A stretch of 64,000 nucleotides of DNA from Octopus vulgaris (lineage: Eukaryota): NCBI GenBank assembly GCA_951406725.2, contig OX597819.1, positions 112,902,001 to 112,966,000 on the forward strand, given 5' to 3'. Made by a program: the position numbers and the translations under genes. Shown here piece by piece: positions 12,415 to 41,077 of this stretch (the stretch's first letter is position 1; every line of letters begins with the position of its first letter). Under the pieces are notes generated by a model. The model searched no databases. It was given only the letters and a program-made list of their open reading frames with translations, and was not told the origin of the DNA.

Positions 12415-12606
12415 ATGGATTTGGCAATCAGTGTTTCGGTATTAATATCTGTTTGTATTAACAGTTGGTTACTGGGTGTTAGTTCGGCCATGGGACGTGA
12501 TACGAGGATTAATTGGGACTTGAACTCTGGACCAGCTGTACCGCAAAGAAATCCATTTGGAGAGAAATCAAAGAATGACAAGAGTGGTTCAGCTATATCA
12601 TCTTCG
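12415..12606 (+). CDS. MMP coding exon 1: signal peptide and start of pro-region
   Basis: agccATGg context; MDLAISVSVLISVCINSWLLGVSSA is hydrophobic with small residues at the likely cleavage site; donor TCG|GTAAGT, phase 0, matches the next exon. Confidence 0.75.
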
Positions 12607-13813
12607 GTAAGTTGTGGAATTGATAATTTGTGGGTGTAGCTGTATCAAAGAGTGTGTGTGTGTGTGTGTGTGTGTGTGTGTAGGGAGGTTGAGGTGTTGA
12701 GTGTGATGTGTGATAAGTATTTCAACTGTATAGAGAGGTGTAGGTATCTGCGTGTTTACGTACACACACACTCATTCACAGACATGCACACTCATATACA
12801 TGCATATGTATTTTCATATATGTGTGTATATGTGTATCTATATATGTGATGTTATGTACCCATATATGCATATATATATATATATATATATATATATATA
12901 TATACATACATATATATATATATATGTATATGTATGTATTTATGTATGTATGTATATATATATATATATATATATATATATATATATATATATACACACA
13001 CATATATATATGTATGAGTGTATATATATATATATGTACGCACGCACACACGCACACACACATATATATGTGTTACTTATTTTCGTCATTAGACTGTGGC
13101 CATGCTGGGGCACTGTCTTGAAGAAATTCTATCTCCAGTACTTATATTTTTAAGTGCGATACTAATTCTATCTGTATCTTTTGCCGAACTGCTAATTTCC
13201 ATGGACATGAACACACACAAAGTTACATATAAACATACATACATACGTGTGCACGTATATATATATATATATATATATATATATATATATATGTATATAT
13301 ATATGATGTATATATGATAGATCGATAGCCACTACACACATCTTTTCTCTCCTTGTTTTTTCTGAGTCCCTTTCTGTAGAAGAACGTAGGCTCGAAACGT
13401 AAAAGACTTTTTATATTCCTGAGCGTTATACTAATACATCTGTTTGTTTTGTACACCACCTGTCTTCGTCTATTGTTTTTTTCGTAAACTCTCCATATAT
13501 ATATATATATATATATATATATATATATATATTTACACATATACATAATATATACATACATATATAAGTGTGTATGTATATAGACACACACATGCGCACA
13601 CATTATTTGTGTGATTGTTGTAGAATAGCGATTTCTGTGTGATATACATTACATTGTTACTTGGCTCACACTCATCTTTAATGCAATTAATCTTTCATCG
13701 AATTTTTTCCAACAGTGAGTATCTCATCTGTATTATAAACATAGCGCATCATATGTTTCAAGAGGACGTGGAATATTTATTATATTCTGAAAGTTAGTGA
13801 GGATAAGATTTGA

Positions 13814-14265
13814 TGTGTGGTAAGTAGCTTGCTTACCAACCCCACGGTTCCGGGTTCAGTCTCACTGCGTGGCACCTTGGGCAAGTGTCTTCTACTATAG
13901 CCTCGGGTCTACCAAGCCTTGTGATTGGATTTGGTAGACGGAAACTGAAAAAAGCCAGTCGTATATATGTATGCATATTTATATATATATATATATATAT
14001 ATATATATATATATATATATATATATGTACGTGTGTCTATATGTTTGAGTGTCTGTTTTTGTCGCCCGCCCCCAACATCGCTTGACAACCGATGCTGGTG
14101 TGTTTACGTCGCCGTAACTTAGCGGTTCGGCAAAAGACACCGATAGAATAAGTACTGGGCTTATAAAGAATAAGTCCTCGGGTCGATTTGCTCGACTAAA
14201 GACGGTGCTCCAGCATGGCCATAATCAAATGACTGAAACAAGTAAAAGAGCAAAGAATAAAAGAG
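13814..14265 (+). mobile_element. SINE family B copy
   Basis: Near full-length homolog of 5828-6226. Confidence 0.85.
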
Positions 14266-14803
14266 TAATAGAAAAAGTCGAAGGCTGGTCGTGGCTTTCG
14301 AGCCCGACAGGTAGCCTTTGACTTTCTCCATAATCAGAAGTAAAAGCGCCCTCTATATCAGTAAGAGAATGAGTGTATCTATATATTGACAAGCAATATA
14401 TAACTGGTTGTGGCTTTTGTCATCAGCTTTGAACCAAATATTGCCATTAGACAATATTCGTCGCGAAACCGACGGTAATATTCTGACCAATTATGTCACA
14501 ACCAGTAGTATAATGTATAATTTTATTCCATACACGCGCGCGCGCGCGCACACACACACACACACACACACACACACACACACACACACACACACACACA
14601 TACACACACACACACACACACACACACACACACACACACACACACACACACACACACACACACACACACACACACACACACACACACGCATATTTATATA
14701 TGACTTACAAATAAACATACATTTTTACATTTATAAAATATACTAGTAGCCTATAGGACTTAAGGTTAGACTATTGAAGATAAATGTATATTTATTAAAT
14801 GTA

Positions 14804-15380
14804 AGGCGGTGAGATGGCAGAAACATTAGCACGCCGGGTGAAATGCTTAGTGGTCTGTCTTTACGATCTGAGTTCAAATTCCGCCGAGGTTGACTTTGCC
14901 TTTCATCATTTCGGGGTCGATAAATTAAGTACCAGTTACGCAATGGGATCGATGTAATCGACTTAATCCGTTTGTCTGTCCTTGTTTGTGTTCTCTGTGT
15001 TTAGCTCCTTGTGGGTAGTAAAGAAATAGGTAGTTCGTCTACCGCTACGTTCTGAGTTCAAATTCTGCCGGGGTCGACTTTGCCTTTCATCCTTTCGGGG
15101 TCGATTAAATAAGTACCAGTTACGCACTGGGGTCGATATAATTGACTTAATCCGTTTGTTTGTCCTTGTTTGTCCTTTGTGTTTAGCCCCTTTTCGGGTA
15201 GTAAAGAAATAGGTATTTCGTCTGCCGCTACGTTCTGAGTTCAAATTCCGCCGAGGTCAACTTTGCCTTTCATCCTTTCGAGGTCGATAAATTAACTACC
15301 AGTTGCGTATTGGGGTCAATCAAATCGACTAGACTCCTTCCACCAAATTCTGGGCCTTGTGCCTAGAGTAGAAAAGAATA
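14804..15380 (+). mobile_element. SINE family A trimer (head-to-tail)
   Basis: One full head, then two units restarting at ggta(t/g)ttcgtc after aaagaaata. Confidence 0.85.
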
Positions 15381-16069
15381 CCTGCTCGCGAATACACGGA
15401 CAAAAGAAACAATGCACGCTCGCGAATGCACAAACATGCACGCGCGCGCTTATGCAAATTCTTCAGGCATAAAACAGTACTAGTCCTGACAAAGTTATCA
15501 TTAAAAATGAATGTATGTGTATGTGTGCATATGTGCGAACGTGTGCGTTTGTGTCATGTTTAAAATAAAAAGCTAGCTACTCAGTTTGTATATTAAAACT
15601 GTTAGTTTTGCTTTTACGTGATTCTTCAGAAAATGAGTTGCGTCGTCTGTCATTCCACCTCCATACCTAGAATCTTTAATATGAATGAAAACAAATTTTG
15701 TATCTCAATGGTGATTTTTGTTGATTCGTAAGACATATGTTTTCATTGGCTGCTATTTGTAATTTTTCTGTATATTTTTGTAGGTTTTTAGATTTGTTAT
15801 GTGTGTACATATGTTTGCTTGTATAAACGTGTGTTGTGTCTGTATCTTTGGAATTGCTTAGTGTTATTCTGTAGTGGATTATTTGATGAACGATGGATTC
15901 TGATTTGCTTAATATTGCTAATTAACACGCCCCCAGCTGTATCAAGAACAAATCCCTCTCTGAACTTTAAGGATAAGAGTTGAATTGGAATAAAAACTCG
16001 ATATCCCCTTCTACTAATAATATTGGCATACCTACACACGGGAGACAGAACAAAAACTTCATAGATTGG

Positions 16070-39260: not shown

Positions 39261-39735
39261 CAAAAATGGCTGTTTTAATCTAATACTGCTTCCCTTTCAT
39301 ATAAGGGATACCAATATATCTTTCAAATTTGTTTTGAGTCACTGGATTTGTTAATTTTACTGTTGTGATTGCCACACGGAGAATAATCTTCCAAAAAAAA
39401 AGTAAGTAGAAAATATGGTACAAAAATATTTTTGGAATTCTCATCAAAACATTTGTTCAAATTTCAATCCGAGATAAAAATAGAAAATTAAAAAATACAT
39501 GAATAATTTTATTTAATTTCACGTGAGTTAATACTTATTAAATATACATGTCATTAAAGGGCGATGTGTTAACTCCTTTAATTGCAGTAGTTTATGGATT
39601 ATTAAAGGACGATATATGAATTCCATTGAATATGGTGGTGAGATGAATGCGACTTTATTCTATTCCTGTCTATAATTCTGATGTAACTTAATTTCTGCCC
39701 CATAAAAACCTTGTTTATATGTTTATTCTTTTCAG

Positions 39736-39892
39736 GGTGACCGTGTTTGGAGGTATCGGAAATGTCGTGGTAGATTCTGTCTGGATCGAGGCTATCCTAG
39801 AAATATAACCGAAGAATTTGGTATTGCCTTACAAGGGCAGGTTACTGCAGCCTACATTCACACCAGGAGAAAAACACTTTATCTATTTAACG
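39736..39892 (+). CDS. MMP coding exon 9: hemopexin blades 2-3
   Basis: GDRVWRY...LDRGYPRNITEEFG...VTAAY...LYLFN; AG acceptor and GTAATA donor. Confidence 0.93.
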
Positions 39893-40004
39893 GTAATATT
39901 TCGTTTAGATATTCTTATAAGACATTAAAATGGGTAGTTAATGACGATAAAACCGACATTTAAAGTTTAATGATTCATAATTCTGAGATCGAAAGGAAAG
40001 GACA

Positions 40005-40600
40005 GTTTTACAGATTTTTACAGTTCTCGTGATGGCTTGATATCTGTAGTCTTCGAGTCAGCATTCTCCTTTCTGGTTTCAAGAAGCCTAATTTCTCAAG
40101 ATTGGTATTTACGCAGTGTGCTACATATCCCAGGTTCCCAATAATTACAGGTATACACTTGGACTTGTAATCTGGATAGAGTGCCTGCAGATTTCTCAAT
40201 AGTTCAGCGTAGATATTCCCTATTTCACTCATCTTCAGCTTTGTGTTAACATCCGCAAGGAACTTGATTTCCACAAGCGTACAGTTTCTCTTCTTTGTCC
40301 CAAATCATTATATCAGGTCTATTGTGTTAACATCTGCTAGGAAGTTAATTTCCACAACTGTACAGTTTCTCTTCTTTGTCCCAAATCCTTATATCAGGTC
40401 TATTGTGTTTACATTTTACTGAGATTTTCACTGGGACATTCCACCAGTACTCCATTTTATTTTAAGTGGCTATATTTTCCACCATATTGTGGGTTCTTTA
40501 TTTCTTCGTCCTCGGGGTTATCCTTTCCAGGGTCTCGTTATACAGTGTCCTAGCTACAACATCATGTCTCATCGGTATATGTTACTGTAATGACATTTTC
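40005..40600 (-). mobile_element. R4/Dong-like REL endonuclease fragment with local duplication
   Basis: Reverse strand YWWNVPV...NRPDI.IWD...IPVIIGNLGYV; a segment of about 78 bp is duplicated at 40245-40410. Confidence 0.72.
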
Positions 40601-40829
40601 AAACAACTGCTTAAGATGTGGGGGATATCTTTGGTATTAACACCACAACGTCAGCATCGGCTGTCACATTTTATTATGCGAATGTATGAAGATATATATA
40701 TATGTAGGTGTATATGAATGTACGTGCGTGTGAATATATGAATCCATATGTAAGCATTTGAGTGTATAGGTGCATATGTTTTACAGTAGACATCTTTATA
40801 TGTAATTATTTATCTATCTACCACTTCAG

Positions 40830-41077
40830 GTACTAATGTTCTCCAGGCAGTAAGATGTGTGAAATGGTTACGTAGACAAGGATGTTCGCTGATTTCCAAT
40901 GCAAGACCAATCGGATTTCTAACCAGTCTTCGAGATATCGATTCTATGTTTACTGACAGAGACTATCTGCACATAATTCACGGAAATAACTTTTTTGCGT
41001 CTTCGCTAAGATCTGCAAGAACTCAAATTTTTCAACATGGATCTGTAAGCAAGATCTTTCTAGGATGTAAATCATAG
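40830..41077 (+). CDS. MMP coding exon 10 (terminal): hemopexin blades 3-4
   Basis: Acceptor ccacttcAG; ...RDIDSMF...[11 protein letters not shown]...IFLGCKS*; the terminal LGC is typical of the hemopexin-closing Cys. No TM or GPI tail. Confidence 0.88.

Follow-up and report, generated by a model that had tools for sequence, protein, structure and literature searches.

A ten-exon matrix metalloproteinase gene of Octopus vulgaris with a 1545-residue hinge in a single exon

Exons for a metalloproteinase catalytic domain and for a hemopexin domain lie on either side of a very long open exon in the Octopus vulgaris genome, and the locus raises the question of whether these parts form one gene and what a protease with such a hinge would do. 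The window, namely, the whole stretch of 64,000 nucleotides analyzed (contig OX597819.1; G000:C6:112902001-112966000), was taken from a genome of 2.8 Gb. The original prediction, made from the letters of this window, described a phase-consistent matrix metalloproteinase (MMP) of about 2059 aa with a single open exon of 4.7 kb between its catalytic and hemopexin domains. When the gene model was rebuilt from the sequence, ten exons were obtained on the + strand, all nine introns carried GT-AG ends (9/9), and the coding sequence of 6180 nt gave exactly 2059 aa and a stop codon. Exon 7 was 4698 nt long and contained the entire hinge of 1545 aa, which separates the last residue of the catalytic domain (G306) from the first cysteine of the hemopexin domain (C1852). 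Both parts of the prediction were thus recovered. Judged from its domains, the gene is a matrix metalloproteinase of MEROPS family M10A (matrixin), and enzymatic activity is predicted.

Coding status and splicing of exon 7

Exon 7 had been described as open despite microsatellite-like runs, and this was compared with chance. No internal stop was found in its frame, compared with 78 and 104 stops in the other two + frames. In 300 block shuffles of the exon, the mean number of in-frame stops was 67 (minimum 48), and the longest open reading frame (ORF) reached at most 286 codons, compared with 1585 observed. The repeats pointed in the same direction. The window was rich in microsatellites (151 TRF rows), and the repeat period was divisible by three in 22/22 rows inside exon 7 and in 47/129 rows outside it (p = 4e-9).

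The variation in public sequencing runs was also that of a coding sequence. Four of the 24 listed runs were compared over 31190-36250, namely, X1 and X3 (organism A, two studies), X9 (organism B), and X16 (organism C); six same-species runs with a share of 0.00 and the small-share runs X14 and X15 were not counted as evidence. Among the 40 of 150 differences that were listed, a best-supported subset from which three repeat-noise rows were dropped, the 37 usable substitutions in exon 7 comprised 21 synonymous and 16 non-synonymous changes and no stops. The synonymous share expected was 26–30% (p 1e-4 to 9e-4). The excess persisted in the non-repetitive part of the linker, where 9/15 substitutions at or after 35400 were synonymous, one of them in the first hemopexin strand. 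Furthermore, the six listed gap totals (3, 9, 12, 15, 15, and 18) and one 63-nt skip were all multiples of three. Among close relatives, the hinge length varied in frame. It was concluded that exon 7 is coding, as the four lines from chance, repeats, variation, and gene structure agreed.

Three points limit how far this variation carries. The substitutions are a mixture of polymorphism within a species and divergence between species, and multiples of three are partly expected within triplet repeats regardless of coding. Moreover, the runs diverged from the window by only about 2–3% (21/1277 in X16 and 13/436 in X9), a range that does not cover deep conservation of the long hinge.

Whether exon 7 is retained in transcripts was examined from the contigs of the same four runs. 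At the 3′ end of the exon, the contigs of X1, X3, and X9 stopped at 35946, with 585, 604, and 488 letters beyond, while exons 8–10 together measure 566 nt. At the 5′ end, the contigs of X3 and X9 started at 31247, and a further 1037 and 71 letters, respectively, did not lie on intron sequence; these overhangs were compared with the 916 nt of coding sequence in exons 1–6. The first listed piece of X1 begins inside exon 7, at 31282. Departure from the genome at the exon ends was accordingly seen in 3/3 RNA-like runs at the 3′ end and in 2/3 at the 5′ end, whereas the DNA-like X16 continued into both introns, to 31207 and 36165. One X3 contig spanned 33161-34884 (1724 nt) free of gaps. The sole pyrimidine-rich C/T-AG acceptor inside exon 7, at 33932, was read through by contigs of X1 and X3. 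Of the 15 joints listed (of 361), none had GT-AG ends (0/15); these joints lay in the CAC-rich block and came from high-depth contigs bearing repeats. Exon 7 thus appears to be spliced in. Removal of most of the exon through internal sites, named earlier as the outcome that would overturn the prediction, was looked for in these data, and no sign of large internal splicing was found.

The contigs also leave room for objections to this view. The runs X1, X3, and X9 were taken as RNA by guess; X16 behaved as DNA. The overhangs were matched to exons 1–6 and 8–10 by end position and length and not by their letters, and the transcript that would join the catalytic and hemopexin domains is a chain of pieces, with no single contig covering both domains. 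The stretches 31863-32041, 32424-32467, 32620-32930, 33065-33126, and 34885-34888 were without a listed RNA-like piece; they amount to 600 of 4698 nt among the 32 rows listed and are mostly skipped repeats, and a hole is no evidence. The largest of them, with poor splice signals, could hide an intron that removes up to about 100 aa. The gene model could be wrong, with the catalytic and hemopexin exons on different transcripts or exon 7 largely spliced out, and the collection of proteins searched held none with the linker. This reading was judged very improbable. The ten-exon layout is equal to that of a paralog described below, contigs enter at the acceptor of exon 7 and leave at its donor, and the gap-free contig and the unused internal acceptor stand against removal from within. 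Skipping of exon 7 would also remove the first hemopexin cysteine and strands.

Domains of the encoded protein and other sequence in the window

The features of the gene are collected in Table 1. The original prediction of intact catalytic motifs held for the catalytic domain. Its zinc motif, HEFGHSLGLMH (aa 265-275), keeps the catalytic Glu of HExxHxxGxxH, and the Met-turn SIMWP (M283) was aligned with ALMYP of MMP-1. The Pfam comparison proposed with the prediction matched Peptidase_M10 (PF00413) to exon 5 (E 2.2e-21) and exon 6 (E 2.1e-12), at 76.8 and 47.7 bits against a cut-off of 24. The pro-domain departs from the usual MMP pattern in two respects. The cysteine switch is the variant RRCGVPD, in which the Cys, Gly, Pro, and Asp are retained and R replaces the first P of PRCGxPD, as in the related protein P0062 (KRCGVPD). 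The PGBD-like signature is lost: Pfam found no PGBD-like domain (PF01471) on exons 1–3, and a pro-domain profile matched the cysteine switch alone and no other ORF in window positions 1-42000. The PGBD-like pro-domain is common in MMPs and not obligatory. The least secure exon by sequence similarity was exon 2, which carries no PGBD match; it is backed by the matching exon layout and phases of the paralog. The N-terminus, assessed by inspection only, has a hydrophobic stretch (aa 3-20) followed by a c-region of small residues.

Two cysteines of the catalytic domain deserve mention. In an alignment with a PDB structure, C261 occupies the place of an Arg in MMP-1 (1fbl), and that Arg closes the S1′ pocket. 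Cys261 and Cys291 are both common to four proteins of the sister clade (P0003, P0062, P0063, and P0064), which suggests a disulfide between them. Separately, a furin-type motif, RKRR, lies within the catalytic domain (window 25436-25450, aa 192-195), where the paralog has WKPR.

The hemopexin domain, closed by the cysteine pair C1852-C2057, is divergent and basic (pI 10.3). The Pfam comparison was less successful here, because the model touched exon 9 weakly and below its cut-off (E 0.0098), whereas a profile built from 22 stored MMPs matched aa 1887-2058 at E 2.4e-11. Two extra cysteine pairs are common to P0058. No membrane-type anchor, whether transmembrane or glycosylphosphatidylinositol (GPI), was found in the model, the C-terminus of which reads GCKS-stop.

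The hinge contains 32% Ser and Thr, 12% Pro, and 30 N-glycosylation sequons, and it is net basic. It qualifies as a Pro/Thr/Ser-rich, partly tandem-repeated region of the mucin type, with a 43-aa repeat and shorter repeats. Its blocks are ordered: a basic His/Thr/Arg part, poly-S and poly-P spacers, a proline block, a Thr-rich part, an Asn/Thr/Ser part, and a less repetitive basic part with the motif RVKR. No VWD/cystine-knot, SEA/transmembrane, or somatomedin B domain was present among the Pfam matches of the ten exons, and the protein was not assigned to the gel-forming or membrane mucins or to lubricin. For the linker, no homology was found, and the ESM Atlas gave no usable match for exon 7.

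Table 1. Exons of the MMP gene and features of its hinge (positions in the window).
Feature	Position	Strand	Description	Basis
Exon 1	12415..12606	+	Translation start; putative signal peptide over about aa 1-26; beginning of the pro-region	Hydrophobic N-terminus by inspection; donor GTAAGT; phase 0, same in paralog
Exon 2	21372..21504	+	Diverged pro-domain exon, in the position of the PGBD-like exon of the paralog	Sole phase 0-to-1 acceptor found from exon 1 to exon 3; 133 nt vs 127 nt in paralog, phases equal
Exon 3	22024..22137	+	Cysteine switch variant RRCGVPD, C118 at 22050-22052; dibasic KR (aa 137-138, 22107-22112), candidate activation site	
Exon 4	24088..24188	+	Start of catalytic domain; 101 nt	Length equal to paralog
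Exon 5	25404..25629	+	Catalytic domain: structural Zn ligands H209, D211, H224, H240; Ca-binding loops	Pfam PF00413, alignment
Exon 6	30515..30664	+	HEFGHSLGLMH at 30541-30573; Met-turn M283; Cys261 at S1′ position; Cys291 in specificity loop	
Exon 7	31248..35945	+	4698 nt: entire hinge, aa 307-1851 (31250-35884), and first hemopexin strands	
43-aa repeat	31706..32241	+	129-nt unit, 4.2 copies, inside the basic His/Thr/Arg-rich block	
Basic His/Thr/Arg-rich block			aa 401-760: 74 K+R, 18 D+E, 16 HVT motifs	
Proline-rich block	33032..33796	+	aa 901-1155: 42% P, 29% S+T, 1 acidic residue	
Asn/Thr/Ser-rich block	34472..35131	+	aa 1381-1600: 16 N-glycosylation sequons	
Furin-type motif RVKR	35522..35533	+	aa 1731-1734, 117 aa ahead of the hemopexin domain	
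Exon 8	37195..37355	+	Hemopexin	51% identity to P0058 over 43 aa
Exon 9	39736..39892	+	Hemopexin; extra Cys 1935 and 1940	Both Cys common to P0058
Exon 10	40830..41077	+	End of hemopexin domain with two extra Cys (1987, 1996) and the closing Cys 2057; stop codon TAG; C-terminus without membrane anchor	

An ORF at 38329-38622, a candidate for an extra exon, was rejected, as it had no Pfam match and was absent from the scan for candidate exons. Several repeats and remnants lie in the introns and flanks. Intron 5 contains five head-to-tail units of 534 bp at 27500-30170, 100% identical, which reflect either duplication in the very recent past or an artefact of the assembly. Tandem units of 183/184 bp, which we take to be SINE-like, occur in intron 1 (14862-15330) and intron 8 (37448-37942). 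Upstream of the gene, a broken LINE reverse-transcriptase remnant was found at 8144-9505 (+), with an RVT_1 match at 8144-8485. A further remnant in intron 1, at about 18500-20030 (+), is presumably also a LINE reverse transcriptase by its motifs, and the one ORF tested there had no RVT match. An isolated 28S rRNA fragment (43366-43830, − strand; Rfam RF02543, model positions 955-1444) lies 2.3 kb downstream of the gene, and a 362-bp unit is repeated 2.8 times at 49066-50067 with 99% identity.

Relatives of the gene and the length of the hinge

About a dozen MMP loci were found in the genome. The closest paralog (G000:C25, 13.60-13.62 Mb) also has ten exons, and all nine intron phases match (0,1,1,0,1,1,1,0,1; 9/9). 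Its exon 7, which holds the hinge and the first hemopexin strands, measures 357 nt compared with 4698 nt here, the hinge exon of the present gene thus being about 13-fold longer, while the sizes of the other exons are similar. An exon of this paralog is 98% identical to a protein of Octopus sinensis. The sister clade consists of cephalopod MMPs named 'collagenase 3-like', namely, P0062 of Octopus sinensis, P0003 (GAB1608138.1) of Argonauta hians, and the unnamed P0063 and P0064. Their hemopexin end is strongly conserved, with 74–98% identity to the C25 copy (L007), and the hinges measured in two of these proteins are 98 and 125 aa (Octopus and Argonauta). All four proteins (4/4) and the C25 copy (L005-L007, G000:C25:13602000-13624000) carry HQIGH at the active site. 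Because the catalytic Glu is replaced by Gln, the sister MMP is predicted to be inactive, that is, a pseudo-protease.

In a quick tree of 27 rows, 16 of them under half filled and with P0021 left out, the gene grouped with P0058 (SH-aLRT 99), and both grouped with P0003, P0062, P0063, and P0064 (SH-aLRT 98). A tree of short catalytic fragments left the gene unplaced. P0058 is a fragment of a distant orthologue, 50% identical over 176 aa, in which the parts encoded by exons 8, 9, and 10 are joined in order. Its hemopexin domain exceeded the Pfam cut-off (26.3 vs 21.3 bits), and its atlas neighbours were hemopexin clusters (0.94). Beyond the closing Cys, residues 200-239 of P0058 form a hydrophobic tail, which may be a membrane or GPI signal or a read-through; the MMP described here stops after CKS (41066-41077).

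Protein searches were restricted by length windows and word filters. When the C-terminal part of the linker was compared with proteins of 860-2739 aa, no match was obtained among 451 candidates. Exon 5 matched 57/77 candidates of 133-2000 aa, none of them an orthologue, and a protein of 2059 aa falls outside this range. Exon 10, searched against 1.84 billion representatives, gave four matches, of which one was related (P0058) and three were repeat-rich proteins of another kind. As a control, the Octopus sinensis and Argonauta proteins were confirmed to be present in the collection. In the search for orthologues proposed with the prediction, the linker was thus not found in any protein, and neither exon 5 nor exon 10 was closely matched. 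Since the linker protein was not found in the collection searched while the paralog is present there, the annotation seems to miss the gene, as the prediction had anticipated, and an annotation gap is suggested. Neither this gene nor an MMP hinge of comparable length was described in the literature searched, with supplements outside its scope, although the gene may be listed in a genome or proteome table for an octopus. The longest MMP hinge there, of about 92 aa, belongs to planarian MT-MMPB (PMC3566077, in part).

Long low-complexity exons are not confined to this locus. A second MMP, on C14 (L008:830-4573 = G000:C14:68203829-68207572, +), has an exon of 1248 open codons, which encodes, in order, a PGBD-like part with a cysteine switch, a low-complexity stretch of about 1,100 aa rich in S/N/T, RKRR, and the start of the catalytic domain. 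We take this MMP to be MMP21-like. Remaining MMP parts lie about 180 kb beyond the C14 exon (L009) and may or may not belong to the same gene. In addition, a paralog on C16 (L019:3131-3979 = G000:C16:4699330-4700178) has a Thr/Pro hinge of about 160 aa. As inflated low-complexity exons are not unique to the present gene, part of the hinge length may be repeat inflation across the lineage.

These relatives bear on whether the length of the hinge was selected or only tolerated. Replication slippage and tandem duplication may have inflated a flexible hinge in a repeat-rich genome, with selection removing just stops, frameshifts, and aggregating residues, and a short hinge would then work equally well. 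The abundance of microsatellites, the poly-S, poly-T, and poly-P runs and 43-aa duplications of the linker, its in-frame length variation among close relatives, and the C14 and C16 genes all agree with such an origin. However, the synonymous excess extends into the non-repetitive linker, the linker is an ordered series of distinct blocks, and the sister hinge stayed at 98–125 aa in both Octopus and Argonauta. Tolerated length was considered rather unlikely.

Proposed function and comparison with known systems

The function proposed for the protein is that of an active secreted protease on a heavily O-glycosylated, extended spacer, held at a surface by its positively charged hemopexin end; the chances for and against this proposal appear evenly balanced. 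The protein would be secreted through its signal peptide and activated by a convertase at KR137-138. The Ser and Thr residues and sequons of the linker would then be glycosylated, extending it to about 0.2–0.4 μm, a length obtained by our own scaling from the 200 nm of lubricin and per-residue lengths. The basic hemopexin domain would bind a polyanionic matrix or cell surface, and the catalytic domain would work at a distance within the glycocalyx, mucus, or gel matrix. True collagenases use close cooperation between the catalytic and hemopexin domains. A tether of this length would abolish such cooperation and leave the hemopexin domain as an address and not as a substrate clamp.

Several observations weigh against this proposal. 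The region aa 401-760 is strongly basic, unlike usual mucin cores, and the C14 gene has a long low-complexity exon of its own. Frame-keeping implies that exon 7 is translated, which does not imply that its length is useful. A furin-type site could also sever the tether. Furin recognizes the motif R-X-R/K-R (PMC10381214, in part), and cleavage at RVKR1734, perhaps also at minimal RxxR motifs within the basic block, would leave no lasting tether. The products would be a protease with a 1,430-aa mucin tail lodged in mucus or matrix and a separate hemopexin piece, about 325 aa long, with a role of its own. K-R-V-K-R-S is a textbook furin context and lies where the linker is poorer in Ser and Thr (aa 1601-1734, S+T 16%); no other such motif occurs in the linker, and no linker Cys stands ahead of it to keep the two products linked. 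However, a motif of this type occurred 1.6 times on average per shuffled linker and at least once in 80% of 2000 block shuffles. As regards its conservation, 12 of the 13 differences of X9 in the contig lie elsewhere and one is unlisted. At this chance-level frequency, RVKR was rejected as evidence and kept as a lead only, and severing of the tether by furin was considered unlikely. Of the tether described in the original prediction, the single MMP gene and the S/T/P-rich hinge of 1545 aa in one exon stood, and its function as a tether is plausible and unproven.

A further proposal, which is possible and on balance doubtful, is that the two related MMPs have split their jobs. The sister MMP, with its HQ site and short hinge, would be an inactive scaffold, while the present one would form a lubricin-like brush of about one-third of a micrometre that carries a protease and a cationic anchor and could be released by a convertase. 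If this were true, a brush protease would remodel the mucus, sucker, or skin surfaces of the octopus from a fixed anchor, with a hinge of far greater length than any other that the searches returned. As MMP hinges govern catalytic-hemopexin cooperation, a hinge more than 20 times as long as the one in MMP-9 offers an extreme case for testing the hemopexin domain as a pure address and the reach of a protease from its anchor. Moreover, the two genes are a clean pair (ten exons each; 357 vs 4698 nt; inactive vs active site) in which to study selection versus tolerance of long low-complexity exons in octopus proteins.

Among known systems, the sister 'collagenase 3-like' MMP is the closest, sharing the ten exons and their phases and the two Cys residues of the S1′ position and the specificity loop. 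It differs in its hinge (98–125 aa vs 1545 aa) and its active site (HQIGH vs HEFGH here), and P0062, P0063, and P0064 carry the PGBD-like pro-domain that the present protein does not. The O-glycosylated (OG) hinge of MMP-9 has about 64 aa, and the hinge of Drosophila Mmp2 about 214 aa. MMP-9 is likewise of the secreted type with a flexible hinge between the catalytic and hemopexin domains; the hinge here is more than 20 times longer, and no fibronectin II repeats are present. The MMP-9 linker is described as flexible, rich in Pro, Ser, and Thr, and positioning the hemopexin domain (PMC6627178, PMC7352350, both in part), with 14 O-glycans (PMC6627178). The hinge of planarian SMED-MT-MMPB comprises residues 309-400 and is T/P-rich with TTTPEP repeats (PMC3566077). 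The planarian and Drosophila proteins are invertebrate MMPs with lengthened T/P-rich hinges, although these are 7- to 17-fold shorter and the proteins are membrane-anchored, in contrast to the anchorless CKS end here. The ancillary domains of ADAMTS-7 and ADAMTS-12, which are likewise secreted metzincins, also include a mucin-like spacer (PMC4020202, in part, for the ADAMTS-12 spacer); the two proteases belong to family M12B, carry the spacer between thrombospondin repeats, and have no hemopexin domain. Finally, lubricin (PRG4) has a long central mucin-like region, a molecular length of about 200 nm, and a positively charged hemopexin-like anchor (PMC13218872, in part). It has somatomedin B domains and no protease, whereas an MMP catalytic domain caps the N-terminus here, and the likeness may be regarded as an architectural analogy.

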